The notes under the pieces: generated by a model
Database searches by the model: none
Told to the model about the DNA's origin: nothing
Seen by the model: only the letters and a program-made list of their open reading frames with translations
In this document: piece after piece, positions 6,403 through 55,205 of the stretch
Layout: every line of letters starts with the position of its first letter
Position numbering within the stretch: the first letter of the stretch is position 1
Position numbers and translations under genes: made by a program
Assembly (NCBI GenBank): GCA_041662125.1
Contig: JBAZTA010000001.1
Location: forward strand, 324,761 to 388,760
Length of the DNA: 64,000 nucleotides
Direction of reading: 5' to 3'
DNA from: Candidatus Omnitrophota bacterium
Lineage (GTDB): Bacteria > Omnitrophota > Gorgyraeia > Gygaellales > Profunditerraquicolaceae

Positions 6403-6610
6403 ATACGAACAGCTTACATACCATTCATTACTTTAACAAAAAAGCTATCTTTCTACGGCCGAACCCGACTTAAAAAAACAATTTATGTATATTTATTATA
6501 CTACGCATCTTCTTTTATTTCAACAAATTAATGAAGCCATGACTTATGGAGCCATCAATTATAATTAAGCGACATAAGTCATCACTTGTAGCTTACTTGC
6601 CGGGCTGAAT

Positions 6611-6661
6611 TATCCTCCGTAGCCCTACCATCATTTTTCTTATCGATAGGCGCAGGAGGAT
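6611..6661. repeat. Repeat family C, copy 1: a stem-enclosed hairpin element about 50 nt long.
   Basis: The 40-nt core agccctaccatcatttttcttatcgataggcgcaggagga is 34/40 identical to 49574-49613. The flanking inverted repeat tcctccg/cgcaggagga covaries with ttcttcg/cgaagaa in copy 2. Confidence 0.6.
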
Positions 6662-6671
6662 CATGAAACCA

Positions 6672-13877: not shown

Positions 13878-15221
13878 TTAAGGCATCATTTGCTTCAGTC
13901 GAACCAAGAAATCGGGAAAAGATTTATTCATACAGGCCACATCATCAACAATTGTTTGGCCTTCTGCCCTTAAACCAGCTACCACCATACTCATTGCAGT
14001 GCGATGATCACCAAAACTTTTAACCTTGGCACCGCGCAATCCTCTTTGGCCTTCAATAACGATATTTTCAGCCAAACCTTGCTTTTGAATAGTTATATGC
14101 GCACCCATTTTTTTTAAATTCTGCGTCATTGAGACAATCCTATCGGTTTCTTTAACCCGTAATTCCCTGACGGATTGAAACACGCTTTTACCCTGGGCAA
14201 AACAAGCAGCTACCATAAGGATCGGCAATTCATCGATCAAAGACGGCACTTCATCTTGAGTGACTGTCGTGGCTTTTAACATACGAGACTTCACCATAAT
14301 ATCAGCTACAGGCTCCTCACCCGCTGCCTGAACAGGCAGGAGAGAAACTTTCAAAAAAGCCCCCATTCTCTTTAAAACTTTCACAATACCGCTGCGGGAA
14401 GGGTTAAGGCTGACTTTCTGAATAATGATACAAGAATCAGGCACAAGCGTTGCAGCAACCATAAAAAAACTCGCGGAAGATATATCCCCGGGAACATATA
14501 TTTTCTTAGGAGAAATAAGCTCCTTATTGCCCCGGATGGATATTTTATTATGCTTGATCTTTATATCCGCTTTAAATAACGAAAATATCCGCTCTGTATG
14601 GTCACGGGTCTTAAGTGGTTCAATAACTTCAGTAACCCCTTGTTTGGTAAAAAGAGCTGCCAGCATGATCGCAGATTTCACCTGCGCGGAAGCAACCGGT
14701 AACCGGTAGTGAATAGGCTTAAGGTTTCCACCGTGTATGGTAAGGGGAGGATATTCTTCCGGGTGAGCAACATGAGGTTTATGGCGAGCGATTATCTGCG
14801 CTCCCATCATCCGTAACGGCCGGGTAACACGCAACATCGGCCTTTGTGAAAGTGATTTACCTGCTACCAACGTAACTTTAAAGTCACATCCCGCTAAAAC
14901 GCCCAGCACCAGGCGTAATGTCGTTCCGGAATCACCCACAAAAACAGGAGAAGACGGTTTCTTTAAACCAAAAATCCCTTGACCGAATACGGTTACCGTA
15001 TTACCAGTCAAGGGATTAAAGTTTTTAACTATCCTTACACCTAATTTACGTAATACTTCCAGTGTATAAAGGCAATCTTTATTTACCGGGAAGTTTTCTA
15101 TTGAAGTCTTTTCTTTTGCCAGAGCGCTGGCGATAATACACCGATGAGCTATAGATTTATCACCGGGGACACTCACGGTGCCCCGCAGATAAGGTATTGG
15201 CTTGACAACACATGACTTCAT
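13878..15221 (-). CDS. aroA: 3-phosphoshikimate 1-carboxyvinyltransferase (EPSP synthase).
   Basis: GTVSVPGDKSIAHR and VGDSGTTLRLVLGVLAG motifs; length 447 aa. Confidence 0.9.
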   Translation of the reverse strand: MKSCVVKPIPYLRGTVSVPGDKSIAHRCIIASALAKEKTSIENFPVNKDCLYTLEVLRKLGVRIVKNFNPLTGNTVTVFGQGIFGLKKPSSPVFVGDSGTTLRLVLGVLAGCDFKVTLVAGKSLSQRPMLRVTRPLRMMGAQIIARHKPHVAHPEEYPPLTIHGGNLKPIHYRLPVASAQVKSAIMLAALFTKQGVTEVIEPLKTRDHTERIFSLFKADIKIKHNKISIRGNKELISPKKIYVPGDISSASFFMVAATLVPDSCIIIQKVSLNPSRSGIVKVLKRMGAFLKVSLLPVQAAGEEPVADIMVKSRMLKATTVTQDEVPSLIDELPILMVAACFAQGKSVFQSVRELRVKETDRIVSMTQNLKKMGAHITIQKQGLAENIVIEGQRGLRGAKVKSFGDHRTAMSMVVAGLRAEGQTIVDDVACMNKSFPDFLVRLKQMMP

Positions 15222-16027
15222 TTAGCTTTTTGTATAACCTTATCGCCTTCACTCACTTTATCCTTTGTCTCGGTGGATACAAAGCCAGCCGCTGACATAG
15301 AATCGTGAATCTTTTCTATTTTAACGTCGCCGATGTAATCAGGCCCGTGATAAACGGAAAAAACATCCCCGATATCAATTCCTTCTTTTTTGCCTAAATT
15401 GGTTACCACAAAATTGTAATCTTTATTGATTACCAGGACCTTACCTTCTAATTTTGCAGAGGCATCTTTCTTGGGAACTTCGGCACCGGTTTTACCAGCA
15501 GTTGCTCCTCCAACAGCGCCTTCGGGGCTGACAACGATCTTGCCCAACTCGATCTTATGCGCTTGGTCCTCAAGCTCTTTTACCTTTTTCTCTAAAGCAA
15601 GCCGTTTTGACTCGATATCTTTGGATTGCGCCTGCATTTTAGAAAGCTCATCTGAAGTCTCATAAAACATTTTCTCCAAATAAGCTTTAGACTTCTTCTG
15701 TTCTTCTAATTGAGCATACATCTGGTCTATCTGCGAAAGAGCATCTTTTCTTGCAGATTTCTCCTGTTCTAAAGACAGCGTGATTTTCTCGCTTTGAAGA
15801 CGGGCTTCCTGCAATCTATTTTCCAGAGTAGCTATCTCTTTCTTAGCTGCTTTGAGATTTTCTAAAACTTCAAGCTCCTTGGCTTTTACGGCTTCTAATT
15901 GCTGCTGCACGCGGACTTTTTCATTACGTTCATTTTGCAATAAATAAAACGTTCCTCCCGCTAACCCCAAAGAAATTAAGATTAAAACTATTAAAATTAT
16001 TACGGAAGTCTTTCCTCTACTACCCAT
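15218..16027 (-). CDS. Hypothetical membrane-anchored coiled-coil protein with a C-terminal beta-rich domain. The start is trimmed to MGSRGKTS to remove the overlap with rluD.
   Basis: N-terminal TM (VIILIVLILISLGLAGG), about 150 aa of heptad-rich QLEAVKAKELEVLENLKAAKKEIATLENRLQEARLQ, and a C-terminal VLVINKDYNFVVTNLG...GDVFSVY domain. Confidence 0.5.
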   Translation of the reverse strand: MGSRGKTSVIILIVLILISLGLAGGTFYLLQNERNEKVRVQQQLEAVKAKELEVLENLKAAKKEIATLENRLQEARLQSEKITLSLEQEKSARKDALSQIDQMYAQLEEQKKSKAYLEKMFYETSDELSKMQAQSKDIESKRLALEKKVKELEDQAHKIELGKIVVSPEGAVGGATAGKTGAEVPKKDASAKLEGKVLVINKDYNFVVTNLGKKEGIDIGDVFSVYHGPDYIGDVKIEKIHDSMSAAGFVSTETKDKVSEGDKVIQKAK

Positions 16028-40555: not shown

Positions 40556-41467
40556 TTAGTGGAGAGCAAAAAGCGCTTTAACCTGATCAATATCGCGGAT
40601 GATTTGACGGCTCAGAGCCTGCGGTGAAGAAAATTTCTTTTCGTTGCGGATCTTCTTGAAAAATTGGACTTCGAGGTATTCCCCGTATATATCCCGGGAA
40701 AAGCCAAATATATGGACTTCGACATGAAGAGAATTTTCCGTATTGAGTTGAAATGTCGGTTTTCTGCCAATATAGCAGATACCGTTAAATAATGTATTCT
40801 GCCAGAGGATCTTCACGGCATAGATACCGGCAGGGGGAATAATCTCATGATGAGGAGAGACATTTGCCGTCGGAAAACCCAGCTTTGTAGCCACACCCGA
40901 CCCCCGCACGATCCTCCCAAAAACACTCACCGGATGAATAAGCAGCTGTTTGGCCTCTGGCAGCTTTCCGGAAAGAATAAGTGAACGGATAAAGGTGCTG
41001 CTGACCCCTCGGCCGAAAACCTTAATAACATCAAAGACTTTTAAGGTATAGCGCCCCTGCCGAGCATACGCGCGCAGCAACGCGACATTTCCGCCGGCAT
41101 TTCTCCCAAACCTGAAATCCTCTCCCACGCAAACAGCCTCTGCCCGGATCTTTTTTATGATTATTTTTTCTATAAAATCATTCGCTTTCATGCGGGCAAA
41201 AGCTTTGGTAAAACGGATGACAACACATACCTTGACCCCGAGTTCCTCGATTAATTTCAACCGGTGCGCCAAAGAATAAATGCTCTCTTTCCCTCGAGGA
41301 TGCGGATAAAACGTAATCACCAGTGCGGTCCCGCCCTTTTGCCGAGATCGTCTGAGCGCGTATCGGATAATCTGACGATGCGCCCGGTGCAAACCGTCAA
41401 AAACACCGATAGCGACAACTGGTTTAGGATATTGTTTTAATTGGGATAAACGGTAGAATACATCCAT
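40556..41467 (-). CDS. ribF: Bifunctional riboflavin kinase / FMN adenylyltransferase.
   Basis: N-terminal FAD-synthetase GVFDGLHRAH and a C-terminal flavokinase domain. Confidence 0.9.
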   Translation of the reverse strand: MDVFYRLSQLKQYPKPVVAIGVFDGLHRAHRQIIRYALRRSRQKGGTALVITFYPHPRGKESIYSLAHRLKLIEELGVKVCVVIRFTKAFARMKANDFIEKIIIKKIRAEAVCVGEDFRFGRNAGGNVALLRAYARQGRYTLKVFDVIKVFGRGVSSTFIRSLILSGKLPEAKQLLIHPVSVFGRIVRGSGVATKLGFPTANVSPHHEIIPPAGIYAVKILWQNTLFNGICYIGRKPTFQLNTENSLHVEVHIFGFSRDIYGEYLEVQFFKKIRNEKKFSSPQALSRQIIRDIDQVKALFALH

Positions 41468-49454: not shown

Positions 49455-49563
49455 GAGACAATGGTATTTAAGGATAAAAAACTTATAAAGGCTGGATTAT
49501 ACACGCAGTCAAAACCAAAAGAAAGGTTTTTTCTTATCAAAATCTATGAAAAAGGGAACCGGC

Positions 49564-49613
49564 TATTCTTCGAAGCCCTACCATCATTTTACTTATTGAT
49601 GGGCGAAGAAGAA
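49564..49613. repeat. Repeat family C, copy 2, immediately 3' of tRNA-Pro.
   Basis: See the copy-1 alignment. It contains a CCATCA/TGATGG hairpin and a TTCTTCG/CGAAGAA enclosing stem. Confidence 0.6.
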
Positions 49614-49688
49614 TCGGGGCGACAGGACTTGAACCTGTGACCTCAACGTCCCGAACGTTGCGCTCTAGCCAAACTGAGCCACGCCCCG
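49614..49688 (-). tRNA. tRNA-Pro (anticodon CGG).
   Basis: Minus-strand sequence CGGGGCGUGGCUCAGUUUGGCUAGAGCGCAACGUUCGGGACGUUGAGGUCACAGGUUCAAGUCCUGUCGCCCCGA. It shows a 7-bp acceptor stem, D-stem GCUC/GAGC, anticodon loop UUCGGGA, T-loop UUCAAGU and discriminator A. Confidence 0.9.
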
Positions 49689-49769: not shown

Positions 49770-50369
49770 TTAGCAAGAATTAGCAGTTACTGCTCTTAAG
49801 GATTGTTTTTTCATCAACATATCATACTCAATATTAACCTGAGCAGAAGGGCCTTTAAAACTTAACGTTGTCAATGCCAAAGTATGGGGGATAATATTTA
49901 CACTGATACAATTTGCTTTTCTGCTGGCTATTGTCAAACTGATCCCGTCAACAGCGAGAGACCCCTTTGAGACGATAAAACTCTCGGCTTCTCTGGAAAC
50001 CGCTATCTCAAAAGTCACCGTATCATTACGGTGACTTTTCTTTCGTATAATGCCTACACAATCAATATGCCCGCTTACAAAATGCCCTGATAAGCGCTGA
50101 CCAACCTGCAGGCTGCGCTCAAGATTCACCTTCTCCATAATTTTCAATGTCCCCAAATTGGTCAAAGAAAGTGTCGCAGACATAACATCAAAACTAAGAG
50201 CATCCGCTTCTATCTTAACAACGGTCAAGCAAACACCGTTAACAGCAATACTATCGCCAATTTTAGTATCGGCAATTACCTTTTTTGCTGCAACGGTTAT
50301 CACGGCAACATTCCCGCACCGCGCAATTTTCTTAACCTGCCCTAATTCTTCAACTATTCCTGTGAACAT
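49770..50369 (-). CDS. ribE: Riboflavin synthase alpha chain.
   Basis: MFTGIVEELGQV N-terminus and duplicated lumazine-binding repeats. Confidence 0.9.
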   Translation of the reverse strand: MFTGIVEELGQVKKIARCGNVAVITVAAKKVIADTKIGDSIAVNGVCLTVVKIEADALSFDVMSATLSLTNLGTLKIMEKVNLERSLQVGQRLSGHFVSGHIDCVGIIRKKSHRNDTVTFEIAVSREAESFIVSKGSLAVDGISLTIASRKANCISVNIIPHTLALTTLSFKGPSAQVNIEYDMLMKKQSLRAVTANSC

Positions 50370-50370
50370 A

Positions 50371-50506
50371 GTGAGGCCACATCTTACGTCGCCTTTTGGC
50401 GACGTAAGATGTCTCCTGTCATTTTACTTATCGGGCCGAACTATCCTGCGTAGCTCCACCGCAGCTTTGTTTGTAAACGAGCGAAGCAGGATAATGAAAC
50501 TATCCC
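50371..50506. repeat. Repeat family A, copy 1: a two-hairpin element of about 135 nt abutting the ribE start codon.
   Basis: Nearly identical to 54650-54777. Hairpin 1 is a 15-bp perfect palindrome, acatcttacgtcgcc-tttt-ggcgacgtaagatgt; hairpin 2 is the ~17-bp imperfect inverted repeat actatcctgcgtagctc...gagcgaagcaggataat. Confidence 0.8.
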
Positions 50507-50541
50507 AGATTATTTAACCTTATTTCCGAACCGTCTATTCA

Positions 50542-51636
50542 TTAAACATAACCTTCGATCAAGATATCCTCGCCGATACGCCTGTATTTTACGTTTTTAA
50601 GCTTGATTGCTTTATCAACGCGTGATATTCCTTGCCCCATGACCGAGCTGATAGCATCTTTCCCGCCAATGATTTTCGGGCTTATGAAAAACAAAACCTT
50701 GTCAACCAACCCCTCATCAAATAACGAACCGATCAACGTCCCGCCACCTTCGACAAATACGTTGGTAATTTCTAATTTTGCCAATTTTTTCATCAAATCC
50801 TTTAAATTAACCTGCCTGACTTTTTCTTTGACTTCCAGGATCATTGCCTTGTGTGCCAAAATCTTTCTGTTCTCTATTTCCTGGCCAGCTTTAGCGAGAA
50901 CGGTAGCAATGATCACTTTACTTTTATCTAAAAAGATATTCGCGTCTTGCGGAGTACTCAATTGGCTATCAATAATGATTTTAACCGGCTGATGCTTGGA
51001 AAACCAGGCATTGAGCCGGGGATTATCCCGCAATACGGTATTAACACCAACCATAATAGCATCGTAATTCTTCCTGATACGATGGCTGTATACACGGGAC
51101 TTATCTGAAGTGATCCATTTGGAATCACCGGTTTTAGCGGCAATCTTGCCGTCTAAAGATTGAGCGACTTTGACCGTAACAAACGGTAAATTCTTCGTGA
51201 TATATTTGATAAAAACCTCATTTACTTTTCTCAAACTGTCTTCAAGCACCCCTACTTCCACTTTTATTCTATTATTTCTTAAGAGCTCGATACCCCTGCC
51301 GTTATTGCACGGGTTAGGGTCGATCATGCCCACCACCACTTCTTTAACACCGCTCTCTATGATACGGGAAACGCAAGGAGGGGTCCTGCCAAAATGCGCG
51401 CACGGCTCAAGCGTAACATATAACGTAGCATTCCGGGCATTTTTACCTGCTTTATCCAAAGCAATTATTTCCGCATGCGCAAGTCCGGCTTTCTCATGAA
51501 AACCGCTGCTCACAATACGGCCGTCTTTTACTACCAACGCCCCCACCATCGGATTCGGGCTGGTCGAGCCTTTAGCTTTTAACGCGAAAGCAAGAGCTTT
51601 TTTCATAAAAAATTCATGGCCTCGTTTTATACTCAT
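50542..51636 (-). CDS. ribD: Bifunctional diaminohydroxyphosphoribosylaminopyrimidine deaminase / 5-amino-6-(5-phosphoribosylamino)uracil reductase.
   Basis: CMP/dCMP deaminase zinc motif HAEIIAL...PCAHFGRTPPC and a RibD C-terminal reductase domain. Confidence 0.9.
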   Translation of the reverse strand: MSIKRGHEFFMKKALAFALKAKGSTSPNPMVGALVVKDGRIVSSGFHEKAGLAHAEIIALDKAGKNARNATLYVTLEPCAHFGRTPPCVSRIIESGVKEVVVGMIDPNPCNNGRGIELLRNNRIKVEVGVLEDSLRKVNEVFIKYITKNLPFVTVKVAQSLDGKIAAKTGDSKWITSDKSRVYSHRIRKNYDAIMVGVNTVLRDNPRLNAWFSKHQPVKIIIDSQLSTPQDANIFLDKSKVIIATVLAKAGQEIENRKILAHKAMILEVKEKVRQVNLKDLMKKLAKLEITNVFVEGGGTLIGSLFDEGLVDKVLFFISPKIIGGKDAISSVMGQGISRVDKAIKLKNVKYRRIGEDILIEGYV

Positions 51637-51645
51637 AAGCTTTAC

Positions 51646-52473
51646 CTATTCTATCAGGCTGTCTTTCGCCTGTTTTAATTTCTCCACTAATTCATAAGGG
51701 ATTTTCATTGACCCGATCCTGACCGCGGCTTTAGCATTCCCATGGCAATCTGAACCGCCGGTAACCAGCAATTGGTACTTGTGCGCCAATTGCAAATAAA
51801 AATTAACCATTGCTTGAGAATGTTCCGGATAATGGACCTCTAATCCCATGATACCGCATGCAATAATCTTTAAAAGGGTATCATCATGCGTAATCGTATA
51901 CGGGTGTGCCAAAACAGGGATACCTCCTGCCCCTTTGATCAAAGAAACCGCTTCTTCAGGAGACAACTTAAAACCAGACACATAAGCGGGCGAACGGTCA
52001 CCGATATATTTCTTAAATGCCATCTCAACACAACTTACCAGTTTTTCTTTAACCAGAGCCCTGGCAACATGTAATCTGCCGACAGTACCGTTACCGGAAA
52101 GCGCAAATACCGCCTGAGGGTCTAACCGAACACCGATACCGTGCAGTTTTTCTATTATCTTATAAATCCGCTCAACGCGTATCTTACGCAAAGACTCAAG
52201 TTGCAGGAGTAATGCCTGATTTTGACAATCAAACAGATACCCCAGGATATGCACTTCAAGCCGCTCATACTGGGCAGTCAATTCTATGCCCGGTAAAACT
52301 TCGATACCATACTTGAGCGCATTTTCAATTATTAAGGGGATACCCTCAACCGTATCATGGTCGACGACCGCGATAGCCGAAAGGCCCGCTTTTTCTGTTT
52401 GCCGGATGAGTTCTTCGGGAGAAAATGTCCCATCAGAAAACACGGTATGTAAATGTAGATCAGCGAATTTCAT
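51646..52473 (-). CDS. PHP-domain phosphoesterase (TrpH/YciV-like) embedded in the rib operon. The start is trimmed to MKFADLHLH.
   Basis: DLHLHTVFSDG, VVDHD, GIELT and GGSDCHG PHP motifs. Confidence 0.8.
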   Translation of the reverse strand: MKFADLHLHTVFSDGTFSPEELIRQTEKAGLSAIAVVDHDTVEGIPLIIENALKYGIEVLPGIELTAQYERLEVHILGYLFDCQNQALLLQLESLRKIRVERIYKIIEKLHGIGVRLDPQAVFALSGNGTVGRLHVARALVKEKLVSCVEMAFKKYIGDRSPAYVSGFKLSPEEAVSLIKGAGGIPVLAHPYTITHDDTLLKIIACGIMGLEVHYPEHSQAMVNFYLQLAHKYQLLVTGGSDCHGNAKAAVRIGSMKIPYELVEKLKQAKDSLIE

Positions 52474-52486
52474 AGGTAAGGGGATT

Positions 52487-52903
52487 TTATTTATTCTTTT
52501 CGAGTTTAACCTTGTCCAGGATACCGTTGACGAATTTACCGGCGTTGACATCTGAATATTTCTTAGCAAGCTCAACACCTTCATTGATCGCTACTTTTGG
52601 AGGGATATCATCTCGGAATAAAAGTTCAAAACTTGTCAGGCGAAGGATATTCCTATCGACAACAGCCATTCGGTTAAGTTCCCAATTCGCAGCGTATTGC
52701 GCGATCTTTGCGTCAATTAACGCTAAATTCTCAACAACTCCCTTTACCAATTCTCCGGTAAACTGACGCACATCATCATAAATTTCTTCTTCACTATGAA
52801 CCTGCCAGAAATTATTCAAAGCAGCCTCATACTGATCATGGGTAATATCGATCTGATATAAAATCTGCAGCGCGAATTCCCGGCCTTTTGTGCGTTTACG
52901 CAT
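52487..52903 (-). CDS. nusB: Transcription antitermination factor NusB.
   Basis: 138-aa all-helical protein with RKRTKGREFALQILYQ N-terminus and a NusB signature. Confidence 0.85.
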   Translation of the reverse strand: MRKRTKGREFALQILYQIDITHDQYEAALNNFWQVHSEEEIYDDVRQFTGELVKGVVENLALIDAKIAQYAANWELNRMAVVDRNILRLTSFELLFRDDIPPKVAINEGVELAKKYSDVNAGKFVNGILDKVKLEKNK

Positions 52904-53436: not shown

Positions 53437-54648
53437 TTAGGTAATCGTAATCTGATGCCCGAGCTTCTCTTTTTTTGTCTTAAGATATTTATAATTAAGG
53501 GGATTTGGTTCAATTTCAAGGGCAATGCGCTCCACGACTTTTAATCCATAGCCCTCTAACCCCACGATCTTACGAGGATTATTCGTAATAAGCTTTATAT
53601 TCTTAAGCCCCAGGTCAACCAATATCTGTGCGCCGATTCCGTAATCACGCAAATCCGCTTTATGGCCTAACGCTTCATTTGCCTCAACAGTATCCATCCC
53701 TTTATCCTGCAAATTATATGCGCGTATTTTATCAACTAATCCTATACCGCGGCCTTCCTGGTTCATATAGAGGATAACACCTTTTTTTTCTTTCTCGATC
53801 ATCTGCATCGCGGTCTTAAGCTGCCTGCCGCAATCACAACGCAGCGACCCGAAAACATCACCGGTCAAACATTCTGAATGAACACGGACTGCTACCGGCT
53901 GGCTTTCACAATTACCCATTACTAAAGCAACATGGACTTGATTACGGGTGAGGTCTTTATACACGATCAACTGATACGTACCGTATTCAGTCGGAAGGAC
54001 AGTTTCAGAAGCCCGCTCGATCAATCGTTCAGAACGGCGGCGGTATTCAATCAGCTGAGCAATTGAAGATATCTTGAGACTATGTTTCCTGGCAAACGCT
54101 AAAAGCTGCGGCAGGCGTGCCATAGACCCGTCATCGTTCATGATCTCACAAATAACCCCCGCGGGATAAAGCCCTGCCAAACGCATCATATCTACCGTCG
54201 CTTCAGTATGTCCGGCCCTGACTAAAACACCGCCGCGGCGCGCCATTAAAGGAAAAACATGTCCCGGCCGGATTAAATCTTCCGGTTTGGACTGTGGATT
54301 AATCAGCACTTCAATGGTTCGCGCCCGGTCAAATGCCGAAATACCGGTTGTCACCCCTACTGCCGCATCAACAGAGATCATCCAAGCAGTAGAAAATGAA
54401 TCTGACTGTCGTACTAATCTGCGCGTCTCCTGCATCGGCTGTAAATCCAACTGAGACAGCCGTTCTTCCTCCATAGGGATACAAATGAGCCCGCGGCCAT
54501 AGGAAGCCATGAAATTGATATCCTGAGGCTTAACAAACGAGGCTGCCATAACCAGGTCGCCTTCATTCTCACGGTCTTCATCATCTACAACTACGACCAG
54601 CTTGCCTTTTTTTAAATCATCTAATATTTCCGGGATCGAATTTAACAT
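53437..54648 (-). CDS. ribBA: Bifunctional 3,4-dihydroxy-2-butanone-4-phosphate synthase / GTP cyclohydrolase II. The start is trimmed to MLNSIPEIL because the upstream 30 codons translate the repeat.
   Basis: DHBP synthase motifs (DEDRENEGDL) and GCH-II cysteines CDCG. Confidence 0.9.
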   Translation of the reverse strand: MLNSIPEILDDLKKGKLVVVVDDEDRENEGDLVMAASFVKPQDINFMASYGRGLICIPMEEERLSQLDLQPMQETRRLVRQSDSFSTAWMISVDAAVGVTTGISAFDRARTIEVLINPQSKPEDLIRPGHVFPLMARRGGVLVRAGHTEATVDMMRLAGLYPAGVICEIMNDDGSMARLPQLLAFARKHSLKISSIAQLIEYRRRSERLIERASETVLPTEYGTYQLIVYKDLTRNQVHVALVMGNCESQPVAVRVHSECLTGDVFGSLRCDCGRQLKTAMQMIEKEKKGVILYMNQEGRGIGLVDKIRAYNLQDKGMDTVEANEALGHKADLRDYGIGAQILVDLGLKNIKLITNNPRKIVGLEGYGLKVVERIALEIEPNPLNYKYLKTKKEKLGHQITIT

Positions 54649-54649
54649 A

Positions 54650-54777
54650 GTGAGGCCACATCTTACGTCGCCTTTTGGCGACGTAAGATGTCTCTTGTAA
54701 TTTAACTTATCGGGCCGAACTATCCTGCGTAGCTCCACCGCAACTTTTCTTATTTACGAGCGAAGCAGGATAGTGAG
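54650..54777. repeat. Repeat family A, copy 2 (full), abutting the ribBA start codon.
   Basis: gtgaggccacatcttacgtcgccttttggcgacgtaagatgtctc...actatcctgcgtagctccaccgca...gagcgaagcaggatagt. The 11 nt before the ATG (gtggcctcact) are identical to those at ribE. Confidence 0.8.
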
Positions 54778-54820
54778 AAAATACGTAATCCTAGTTCTTA
54801 TATTACTCTTATCATTTACT

Positions 54821-54890
54821 GTCGGTTCGAACTATCCTGCGTAGCTCCACCGCAACTTTTCTTATTTACGAGCGAAGCAGGATAGTGAAA
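54821..54890. repeat. Repeat family A, partial copy 3 (hairpin 2 only).
   Basis: tcggttcgaactatcctgcgtagctccaccgcaacttttcttatttacgagcgaagcaggatagtg. Confidence 0.75.
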
Positions 54891-54900
54891 CCACCTATAA

Positions 54901-54928
54901 AAATAAAACCCGAAGGAAAATCTTCGGG
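54901..54928 (-). terminator. Rho-independent terminator, the expression platform of the FMN riboswitch.
   Basis: The minus strand reads CCCGAAG-AUUUUC-CUUCGGG followed by UUUUAUUUUU. Confidence 0.75.
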
Positions 54929-54940
54929 TAATAGAATATA

Positions 54941-55168
54941 CCTTAATCTTCTTTCATCTGGACTTTAACCACCTACTGCGCAGCACCCAGCCATAAATGA
55001 TTGGCTGGTATGCCACTTTCTGTGGCACCATCGGCTCTGGAATTTAACCAGATCTGTATTCTGCTTGTGCAGAATACTCGCGGGCTATTACACCCGGCGT
55101 TATTGGAAACGCCGGTGTGCGCCTTTTGCGCTACCGCCGGTTAGGAATTACACCTTACCCCGAAGATC
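54941..55168 (-). promoter_or_regulatory. FMN riboswitch (RFN element) aptamer, unusually long because of inserted hairpins.
   Basis: The minus strand reads GAUCUUCGGGGUAAGGUGUAAUUCCUAACCGGCGGUAG...AGCCCGCGAG...AGCAGA...GGUUAAAUUCCAGAGCCGAUGGUG...AAAGUCCAGAUGAAAGAAGAU, matching the RFN consensus. Confidence 0.85.
54976..55029. repeat. Repeat family B, copy 2, located inside the FMN aptamer's 3' variable region.
   Basis: ctgcgcagcacccagccataaatgattggctggtatgccactttctgtggcacc, with stems CCAGCC/GGCTGG and GCCAC/GTGGC. Confidence 0.55.
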
Positions 55169-55177
55169 AATTCAGTA

Positions 55178-55205
55178 AGTATACCACAAAATCTTGTCTT
55201 GTCAA
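55178..55205 (-). promoter_or_regulatory. Sigma70-type promoter of the rib operon.
   Basis: The minus strand reads TTGACA-N16-TATACT, about 10 nt upstream of the aptamer 5' end. Confidence 0.6.

Follow-up and report, generated by a model that had tools for sequence, protein, structure and literature searches.

A probable palindromic mosaic repeat at gene boundaries of Candidatus Omnitrophota, with copies abutting the ribE and ribBA start codons

The hairpin element that directly precedes ribE and ribBA in a Candidatus Omnitrophota MAG is probably a bipartite palindromic mosaic repeat of the kind that sits at gene boundaries in Candidatus Omnitrophota genomes. As we model it, each unit joins a GC-rich hairpin, A, to a long AT-rich hairpin, B, on its 3' side, the latter made up of helix P1, a TC/TC mismatch, helix P2, a bulge and helix P3. 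A reading of the element as a flavin-specific regulator is not supported. Rib-specificity is likewise not supported, because family members stand at non-flavin sites and most orthologous rib operons lack it. The first-pass annotation, which had favored a rib-specific cis-regulatory role, had also named scattered copies and element-free orthologous operons as findings that would speak against it, and that is largely what we see. All coordinates refer to the window, by which we mean the whole 64-kb stretch of DNA that was analysed; the genes in this part of it all lie on the minus strand.

Results

Two near-identical copies abut the ribE and ribBA start codons

The operon reads ribBA, ribH, nusB, a PHP-domain gene, ribD and ribE, followed by tRNA-Pro. 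Its leader carries an FMN riboswitch, and the repeats at ribBA lie between the riboswitch terminator and the ribBA ATG. The features of the leader and of the two insertion sites are listed here in the direction of transcription, with bit scores from our hairpin-repeat model, R1.

55178-55205, minus strand: near-consensus promoter TTGACA-16-TATACT with TG, from a promoter scan; not part of the repeat
54942-55171, minus strand: FMN riboswitch aptamer, Rfam RF00050, 89.2 bits against a gathering score of 66.2
54908-54929, minus strand: intrinsic riboswitch terminator, from a terminator scan
54778..54889, minus strand: distal ribBA unit with hairpin A, linker and vestigial B (R1 73.6 bits; inverted repeat; sequence); hairpin A arms 54831-54847 and 54870-54886; its tail TCTCACTAT opens the next unit
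54649..54777, minus strand: full A+B copy at ribBA (R1 150 bits; 92% identical to the ribE copy); helix A 54719-54774, P2 54713-54716 with 54654-54657, linker 54692-54712, hairpin B 54658-54691, tail 54649-54653
54648-54646, minus strand: ribBA start codon, directly downstream of the full copy
53437..54648, minus strand: ribBA, 403-aa protein MFA6216354.1 at 100% identity; ORF list
50542-50544, minus strand: ribD stop, upstream of the remnant on the next line
50499..50541, minus strand: putative degenerate linker-like remnant ACGGTTCGGAAATAAGGTTAAATAATCTGGGATAG, from by-eye comparison with the linker AGTTCGGCCCGATAAGTAAAATGACAGGAG
50370..50498, minus strand: full A+B copy at ribE (R1 143.8 bits; alignment and pair counts; fold); helix A 50440-50495, P2 50434-50437 with 50375-50378, 21-nt linker bulge 50413-50433 with AGGAG at 50413-50417, hairpin B (P3) 50379-50412, tail TCACT 50370-50374; P1, ATAGT (50440-50444) with ACTAT (50368-50372), takes in the A and T of the start codon
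50369-50367, minus strand: ribE start codon, directly downstream of the full copy
49770..50369, minus strand: ribE (riboflavin synthase), ORF list, N-terminus MFTGIV; start codon inside helix P1

Read 5' to 3' on the minus strand, the DNA before either ATG runs TCAYTAT, an imperfect hairpin A of ~56 nt, AGTTCGGCCC, a 21-nt A-rich stretch, the palindrome ACATCTTACGTCGCC-AAAA-GGCGACGTAAGATGT, GGCCTCACT and then, immediately, ATG. The two copies form a 133-nt direct repeat of 92% identity (50365-50497 and 54644-54776), and a repeat search places a partial third copy near ribBA (54822-54888), in agreement with the earlier description of two ~135-nt copies and a partial one. Equally sound were the perfect 15-bp palindrome with its 4-nt loop (50379-50412 and 54658-54691) and the second, imperfect hairpin of ~17 bp, here hairpin A, whose arms measure 15-17 nt and are 87-88% complementary. 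The spacer between palindrome and ATG had been given as 11 nt and is in fact 9 nt (GGCCTCACT), the 11-mer having counted the palindrome's last GT; the palindrome end of each ~129-nt full copy stops 9 nt short of the start codon. Exact matches to the palindrome arms number four, with none elsewhere in the 64 kb, and a search of the window allowing up to three mismatches returned seven against ~1 expected by chance. Both element RNAs fold better than shuffled sequence, with z of −4.4 and −3.9.

The true ribBA start is at 54648, where the protein begins MLNSIPEIL. A 433-aa ORF from the GTG at 54738 runs through the repeat and is a false N-terminal extension, as had been recognised before. To judge from its sequence, the segment between the ribD stop and the full copy at ribE (50499..50541) is a probable remnant of an older unit. 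Independent assemblies repeat the elements (L085 against the window, L088 against L087, L090 against L089), so they are not assembly artefacts.

Covariation defines the unit

Six full copies were aligned to define the helices. The window supplied three of them, L001 two and L002 one; L001 and L002 are relatives with a RibBA 94% identical to that of the window. Compensatory changes occur in 13 of 33 pairs, and 97% of cells are paired, against 32-43% when the columns are slid by one to three. Helix P2 is a 4-bp helix that closes hairpin B across the 21-nt stretch, with pairs GGCC/GGCC in most copies, AGCC/GGCT in the copy at 6532 and GGTC/GACC in L002. The fold adds an outer helix, P1, in which ATAGT at the end of the A 3' arm pairs with ACTAT, including the A and T of the start codon. 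The A 5' arm and the tail after B are both complementary to one segment, which results in an apparent 7-nt direct repeat, TCACTAT; in L001 tandem units meet at this repeat.

A second covariance model, R2, was built from ten linker-less B modules of other lineages. With P1 and P2 included, 12 of their 20 pairs covary, and 97% are paired compared with 28-47% after sliding. From the outside inwards, B consists of P1 (5-6 bp; ATAAGT/ACTTAT, TTAAT/ATTAA, ATAAAT/ATTTAT), a conserved TC/TC mismatch, a GC-rich 4-bp P2, a 2-nt bulge, P3 (core AAYTTAYG/CRTAARTT) and a small apical stem. Across the family P3 is 10-15 bp long. An enlarged bulge of 12-27 nt, which is the linker of the window, distinguishes the window clade (20-27 nt), L011, L010 and L091. 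The invariant motif of B is (A/T)TTC(G/A) with the TC/TC mismatch, and a GC-rich hairpin of widely varying sequence usually occupies the A position 5' of B. Covariation backs all of the helices, A, P1, P2 and P3, and together with the shuffled controls it bears out the earlier view of the element as a structured unit. Both R1 and R2 can be rebuilt from the coordinates given. The P3 5'-arm core, AAYTTATG, resembles the start-codon junction.

Such hairpins could be recognition structures of single-strand DNA transposition, either REP/RAYT or IS200/IS605-derived, with the TC/TC mismatches and the ~10-nt tail after B as cleavage and guide features. The unpaired TC/TC is indeed conserved within an otherwise freely covarying stem, the conserved tail lies 9-10 nt downstream of the hairpin foot, and clusters alternate in orientation as in BIMEs. 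Against this, the GTAG/CTAC foot is absent and the conserved motif is TTCG instead. IS200/IS605 ends usually carry similar hairpins, whereas A and B are unrelated to each other; elements of that group also insert 3' of a fixed tetranucleotide. Neither a RAYT nor a Y1 transposase appears in the gene tables of the sampled DNA, and a Pfam scan of 10 window ORFs returned no transposase and only a housekeeping XerC/D-type recombinase. We regard a transposition origin of this type as highly unlikely.

Rfam 15 held no family at or near its gathering threshold for the element, only generic miRNA-precursor hairpin matches far below it, and BLAST of the element against phage and plasmid collections found no match. 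An integron attC site was rejected by eye, there being no GTTRRRY core at the 3' end. A dif-like XerC/D site was also rejected on its wrong arm spacing, although TTATGTT resembles a XerD arm.

The family extends beyond the flavin genes

Run without filters over the 64 kb, R1 found five copies and no others. The first-pass annotation had rightly listed three of these and missed the two that lie away from the rib start codons, which are given here with the neighboring tRNA gene.

49614-49688, minus strand: tRNA-Pro(cgg), from tRNA prediction; the A-only copy starts directly after its 3' end
49553..49619, minus strand: hairpin-A-only copy, repeat family D1, R1 43 bits; abuts the tRNA-Pro(cgg) 3' end
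6532..6667, minus strand: diverged full A+B copy, R1 115 bits; sequence; same in Logan assembly L085

The copy at 6532-6667 begins 5 nt past the stop codon of a radical-SAM gene (TIGR03960), ~130 nt ahead of the next gene. Its A, P2 and B all show compensatory changes, and its tail, GGCTTCATTAAT, holds no ATG. At the matching site in L086, where the radical-SAM protein is 84% identical, there is a diverged B without an A. After tRNA-Pro, the close relative L001 has other hairpins in place of the A-only copy. The flavin gene ribF, also in the window, has no copy of the element.

To see beyond the window we used ~0.5 Mb of DNA from relatives, mostly rib-operon centered and fetched through RibBA, alongside the 64 kb of the host genome. 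A structural descriptor search and R2 located B-type modules at many other Omnitrophota loci, in both orientations, and every copy found is intergenic. In ~1.1 Mb from other phyla neither R2 (E<=1) nor the family consensus found anything; seven descriptor matches there lack the consensus and look random. Among the loci sampled, the family is limited to Omnitrophota. The window's own sequence subtype (A 3' arm plus P2) is narrower still: a metagenome-contig scan found it only in the rib locus of one relative's contig, and a genome-contig collection, from which the host species is absent, gave 0 matches.

At start codons the element recurs in one register, TCAC(T)TA followed by TG, at ribBA, ribE, nusB and two other genes in at least four lineages. 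It abuts both the ribBA and ribE starts in the window, L001 and L002, the ribE start in L011, and the starts of ribBA, ribE, nusB and a metallophosphoesterase gene in L087. In L089 it abuts the start of a xerC/D-like recombinase gene whose N-terminus aligns residue for residue with element-less orthologues. The junction at start-codon sites always includes TTATG or TATG, which is not so elsewhere.

Other copies have no start codon to serve. Modules lie against the tRNA-Pro 5' end in L016 and L018 and, antisense, against its 3' end in L010 and L017, while L015 has an antisense module upstream of tRNA-Pro and another module inside the variable loop of its FMN aptamer. In the ribBA-ribH gap of L091 the TAA stop falls within P1 of a reversed B, and a normal ribH SD follows the forward B. 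The ribH-nusB gap of L016 contains A-type hairpins of both orientations, and the leader of L023 has them reversed. Composites of the form B(rev)-A-B(fwd) are found in L087, L091, L015 and L018; the arrays of the window are direct, not alternating. Copies at the radical-SAM 3' end, the tRNA-Pro flanks and the xerC/D-like, nusB and metallophosphoesterase starts are at odds with the proposed restriction to rib genes.

A tally of independent lineage-by-site occurrences (~19) places ~10 inside rib operons, 5 beside tRNA-Pro and 4 elsewhere, with rib operons amounting to ~27% of the bases sampled. Rib operons are thus enriched ~twofold by this independent-site count, in a sample biased by its RibBA-fetched loci. 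The tRNA-Pro flank is the stronger hotspot, and tRNA proximity together with the long riboswitch leader may be the source of the twofold excess.

Since copies are found directly against start and stop codons and against either end of tRNA-Pro, the element might be thought a transcript-boundary signal, whether a terminator, a 3'-end stabiliser or an RNase processing site at gene and tRNA borders. Three copies are indeed followed by U-rich tails, namely the one at 6532-6667 of the window, that of L086 and that at L018 10896. The tail of the rib copies, GGCCUCACUAUG, lacks a U tract, a scan for terminators called none at the elements, and most relatives do without such a signal at these borders. 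Termination at the rib copies would, moreover, silence ribBA and ribE. A boundary function of this sort is extremely unlikely, and an intrinsic terminator was rejected, no site being called at 50370-50498 or 54649-54889 (tail GGCCTCACTATG). The annotation's statement that the palindrome has no U-tract and is not a terminator agrees with this. A promoter inside the element was likewise rejected: no site was called, and by eye the candidate -10/-35 hexamers are unconserved between variants.

Insertion, turnover and probable local copying

The repeat is an insertion: relatives pass directly from terminator to SD to ATG and have the ribD stop abutting the ribE ATG. Most relatives with 73-80% RibBA identity have no element at ribBA; the terminator is followed by a GGAG-type SD and the start within ~10-25 nt. 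These genomes also have a ribD stop that touches or overlaps the ribE ATG, as in TAAATG. Most orthologous rib operons thus manage with an ordinary SD or a coupled stop/start, contrary to what a dedicated rib element would lead one to expect. Presence is patchy on the RibBA identity matrix, with L087's nearest relative, L091, lacking the element at both starts, and this pattern points to several gains or frequent loss. An alignable pair of empty and filled sites that would reveal a target-site duplication was not found among the sampled loci. Many copies have TA or TTAA at both ends, and the 4-6 nt that flank them form inverted instead of direct repeats (TAAG...CTTA, TAAA...TTTA).

Turnover is also visible between close relatives. 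The window has 1.5 units at ribBA where L001 has 3, and 1 at ribE where L001 has >2; A-only and B-only units exist as well. A 68-nt palindromic insert is nested in two of the L001 A hairpins and recurs after the L001 tRNA-Pro. One 47-nt segment of B is 100% identical across all four window and L001 copies, while synonymous-site identity of the adjacent genes is 68% for ribBA and 59% for ribE (window versus L001). In L002, which is equally related, a wholly different B stem occupies the same position. Identity in some lineages with wholesale replacement in L002 is what overwriting from other family members would produce, and slow purifying selection at a single locus would not give that pattern. 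Differences of copy number and stem among relatives with 94%-identical RibBA, the use of both orientations and the empty ribF thus speak for a repeat and against the suggested rib-specific device.

The shared register still calls for an explanation. In the window clade and in L087, the copy most closely related to the one at ribE is the one at ribBA in the same genome, and vice versa, and ribBA and ribE both begin ATGTT, with a T preceding in many relatives. We infer that the common junction arose by local copying between the two sites, and that TA/TTATG at the stop-start boundary of packed operons is a preferred, or the solely tolerated, target. The identical placement had been taken as evidence against random insertion of a MITE. 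That the register is non-random stands, and the junction recurs in other lineages, but the element is probably of REP/MITE type after all.

Access to the ribE and ribBA start sites

Predicted accessibility is low at both genes. Over -20 to +15, ribBA has a mean unpaired probability of 0.24, rank 1 among 47 genes, and ribE one of 0.31, tied for rank 2, against a median of ~0.48, and the 15 nt upstream of ribBA are predicted to be 90% paired. The repeat probably lowers access to both start sites, and the translational occlusion suggested earlier is plausible to the extent that these starts are predicted to be the least accessible of the 47. From the same folds we infer that the insertions damp or insulate translation of ribBA and ribE.

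The claim that no SD is present needs to be divided. It is correct for the 9-nt spacer at both genes, but in the ribE copy of the window and of L001 hairpin B is immediately preceded by AGGAG (50413-50417 in the window). At this position ribBA copies have AAGAG, as in the window, or ATGAG, and the L011 ribE copy has AAGGAGGAGG; the L087 copies are without a linker. Folded, hairpin B is predicted to put the SD-like tract of ribE ~9-13 nt from the AUG. SD use in the genome is patchy, and the absence of an SD was rejected as an anomaly in itself because many window genes have none. A conserved upstream ORF was also rejected, the ATG of the ribE linker being ATT in the ribBA copy.

It is tempting to speculate that the sense B module has been co-opted as an RNA-level translational operator, in which P1 masks the AUG and the SD-like purine tract of the P2/P3 bulge is brought ~9-13 nt from it as a split ribosome-binding site. 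Opening or cleavage of the structure, whether by a protein, an sRNA, temperature or RNase III, would then add a step after the riboswitch that coordinates translation of ribBA and ribE, together with nusB in some lineages. Several observations are in keeping with this: one junction register at five gene starts in at least four lineages, pairing of the P1 5' strand with the A and U of the AUG alongside covarying P1 columns, and a GGAG just 5' of P3 in the linker-bearing ribE copies (window, L001, L011). The two initiation regions are the most structured in the window, the tally gives a ~twofold enrichment in rib operons, and asymmetric A-B units are mostly sense (~9 versus 2). In B(rev)-A-B(fwd) composites, however, pseudo-symmetry makes a sense 3' B automatic. 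The purine tract is only AAGAG or ATGAG in ribBA copies and the L087 copies have no linker, the stem was replaced wholesale in L002, and a plain SD or coupled stop/start suffices in most relatives. The module also occurs without any start codon, at gene 3' ends, at tRNA ends, in an aptamer loop and antisense. On balance we consider an operator unlikely.

The shared ATG register and the pairing of P1 with the AUG could reflect selection at the RNA level, a consideration that stands against the repeat reading. Also weighing against it are the absence of a transposase or RAYT partner among the 10 ORFs scanned, the lack of a clean empty/filled pair of sites, the confinement of the exact window subtype to the rib locus in the metagenome scan, and the share of insertion sites that fall in rib operons or beside the adjacent tRNA-Pro.

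Flavin sensing itself most likely resides in the intact upstream FMN riboswitch and not in the repeat. Riboswitch and repeat share a leader and the riboswitch controls the same operon, but RF00050 is a separate RNA upstream, and the repeat is dissimilar to it and lies downstream of the riboswitch terminator. RF00050 does not match the element even at E<=10, and the sole aptamer match is the one at 54942-55171. With riboswitch, terminator and promoter all intact upstream, a rib-specific flavin role for the element is not supported.

Discussion

We propose a model where the repeat behaves as repeated DNA that arrives at or beside stop, start and tRNA boundaries. Local copying would then spread it, because the ribE and ribBA copies are closest to each other, and units would be amplified in tandem, because the tail after B repeats the A 5' arm. 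Stems would be overwritten from other members of the family. Comparison with relatives shows where the rib insertions landed: at ribBA the repeat lies upstream of the ATG, behind the FMN-riboswitch terminator, and at ribE it separates the ATG from the ribD stop. In the mRNA, P1 is predicted to pair the A and U of the start codon, leaving the upstream 15 nt almost fully paired. The consequence may be constitutive damping or insulation of ribBA and ribE translation, and possibly hairpin-mediated stabilisation of mRNA segments.

The family appears to be a previously undescribed one of the kind that may be called bacterial interspersed palindromic mosaic repeats, with the habit of placing start or stop codons in its terminal helix; a literature search on Omnitrophota repeats turned up no description of it, and neither did Rfam. 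REP and BIME sequences of Escherichia coli and other Proteobacteria are short, extragenic imperfect palindromes in alternating, linker-separated clusters at gene borders. Their occupancy varies between relatives, and they are co-transcribed and affect mRNA stability and translation; typically they number in the hundreds in a genome that also encodes a RAYT. The Omnitrophota repeat likewise consists of extragenic, hairpin-backed palindromes with alternating clusters, operon gene-border sites and variable occupancy. It differs in having no GTAG/CTAC foot and a TTCG with TC/TC mismatches instead, in its unrelated sequence, in a B module of 55-90 nt with three helices, and in the many copies that overlap a start or stop codon. 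No RAYT gene was seen in the sampled DNA.

Correia or NEMIS elements of Neisseria are ~100-150 bp palindromes near gene starts that are co-transcribed as long hairpins and alter downstream expression. Their hallmarks are inverted repeats of 26 bp, duplication of a TA, an IHF site and processing by RNase III. The present repeat is similarly palindromic, close to gene starts and able to form long hairpins, but its terminal helix includes part of the start codon. B has several MITE-type traits: it is a palindrome of 55-90 nt, it is bounded by the inverted repeats of its outer arms, P1 and P2, and it contains no ORF; presence/absence polymorphism between related genomes is another.

In phage T4 genes 38 and 25, split ribosome-binding sites have a hairpin between an SD-like tract and the AUG that shortens the spacing. 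The ribE copies are comparable in their order of AGGAG, hairpin B, 9 nt and AUG. The T4 sites are single-gene features and not repeats; the SD-like tract of the present element is unconserved in the ribBA and L087 copies.

BOX elements of Streptococcus pneumoniae offer a further parallel: they vary in module number, form stem-loops, insert into transcribed regions and into each other, and give rise to 5' adducts and spurious ORFs; it has been demonstrated that they carry terminal inverted repeats and duplicate their target (PMC3049150). Both families are built of distinct modules whose number varies between relatives and both create false ORFs, here the false ribBA extension, but BOX belongs to another phylum and is apparently unrelated in sequence.

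As a mosaic repeat, the element defines a structured family in an uncultured phylum. It accounts for false N-terminal extensions and inflated intergenic gaps in the annotation of Omnitrophota MAGs, and it is a warning that repeats in riboswitch leaders are not to be taken for an expression platform. Repeated exaptation of B by Omnitrophota as a translation-initiation structure, with sister copies at ribBA and ribE (and at nusB in L087) forming a second layer after the riboswitch that sets the stoichiometry or timing of rib enzyme synthesis, strikes us as rather doubtful; if true, it would explain why unrelated lineages acquired the module in the same register at the same start codons. At ribBA and ribE the repeats have replaced an SD and a coupled stop/start, leaving essential genes with structured starts that lack an SD. 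If these genes are still efficiently translated, they would provide a natural system for SD-independent or hairpin-assisted initiation.

Repeat modules within FMN aptamers and elsewhere

The FMN riboswitch aptamer of the window (54942-55171) bears insertions of 44 nt and 65 nt in two of its peripheral loops, and further FMN leaders from Omnitrophota contain paired hairpins that resemble these insertions. At comparison locus L015, one such peripheral loop of the aptamer houses a composite of repeat modules. Evidently, the peripheral loops of the FMN aptamer tolerate repeat insertion. At a second comparison locus, L087, a B module is made up, in order, of a reverse B's 5' half, an unrelated hairpin and a forward B's 3' half, whose end is TCACTTATG. 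This chimeric structure suggests that modules have recombined with one another.

L015:2370-2533, B(rev)-A-B(fwd) composite
L087:16820-16905, chimeric B module before a metallophosphoesterase gene

The window copy at 6532-6667 lies beside a promoter that serves the downstream GGDEF gene. This promoter starts 8-9 nt past the end of the repeat and is conserved between the window and locus L086.

Window 6487-6520 and L086:7200-7232, TTGAAA-17-TATAAT promoter

Other palindromes

The ribE coding sequence contains a perfect 13-bp palindrome, AAAAGTCACCGTA-TCAT-TACGGTGACTTTT; in L001, L087 and L089 the corresponding sequence does not form a palindrome. In L092, the gap between ribBA and ribH holds a long palindrome, GGTTGTGAGGATGAGTTGTGGG...CCCACAACC..., which is a different repeat in a position of like kind.

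Window 50010-50039, ribE palindrome, flagged terminator-like on the plus strand
L092:11210-11320, GT-rich/AC-rich palindrome

L001, whose RibBA is 94% identical to that of the window, carries a second small palindromic family of two hairpins with the core CCCGAGTYTC...GARACGAGGG, seen neither in the window nor in any other fetched locus. Two A hairpins are interrupted by its insert at an identical point, and a further copy follows tRNA-Pro. At the same locus GGGGCGTGCCCCGTTACAAA occurs three times as inverted copies, a sequence that is reverse-complementary to the leader and 5' end of tRNA-Pro; the window has none.

L001:9631-9700, 14308-14381 and 15567-15614, members of the second family
L001:15255-15445, three inverted GGGGCGTGCCCCGTTACAAA copies upstream of tRNA-Pro

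ribF and the rib operon

Window ribF directly adjoins its upstream gene and carries no repeat. Within the rib operon, every Omnitrophota relative seen has a conserved PHP-domain gene that separates nusB from ribD.

Window 40556-41467, ribF (FAD synthetase/riboflavin kinase)
Window 51646-52584, PHP-domain (phosphoesterase) gene

The product of this PHP-domain gene may be the enzyme that carries out the phosphatase step in riboflavin synthesis.
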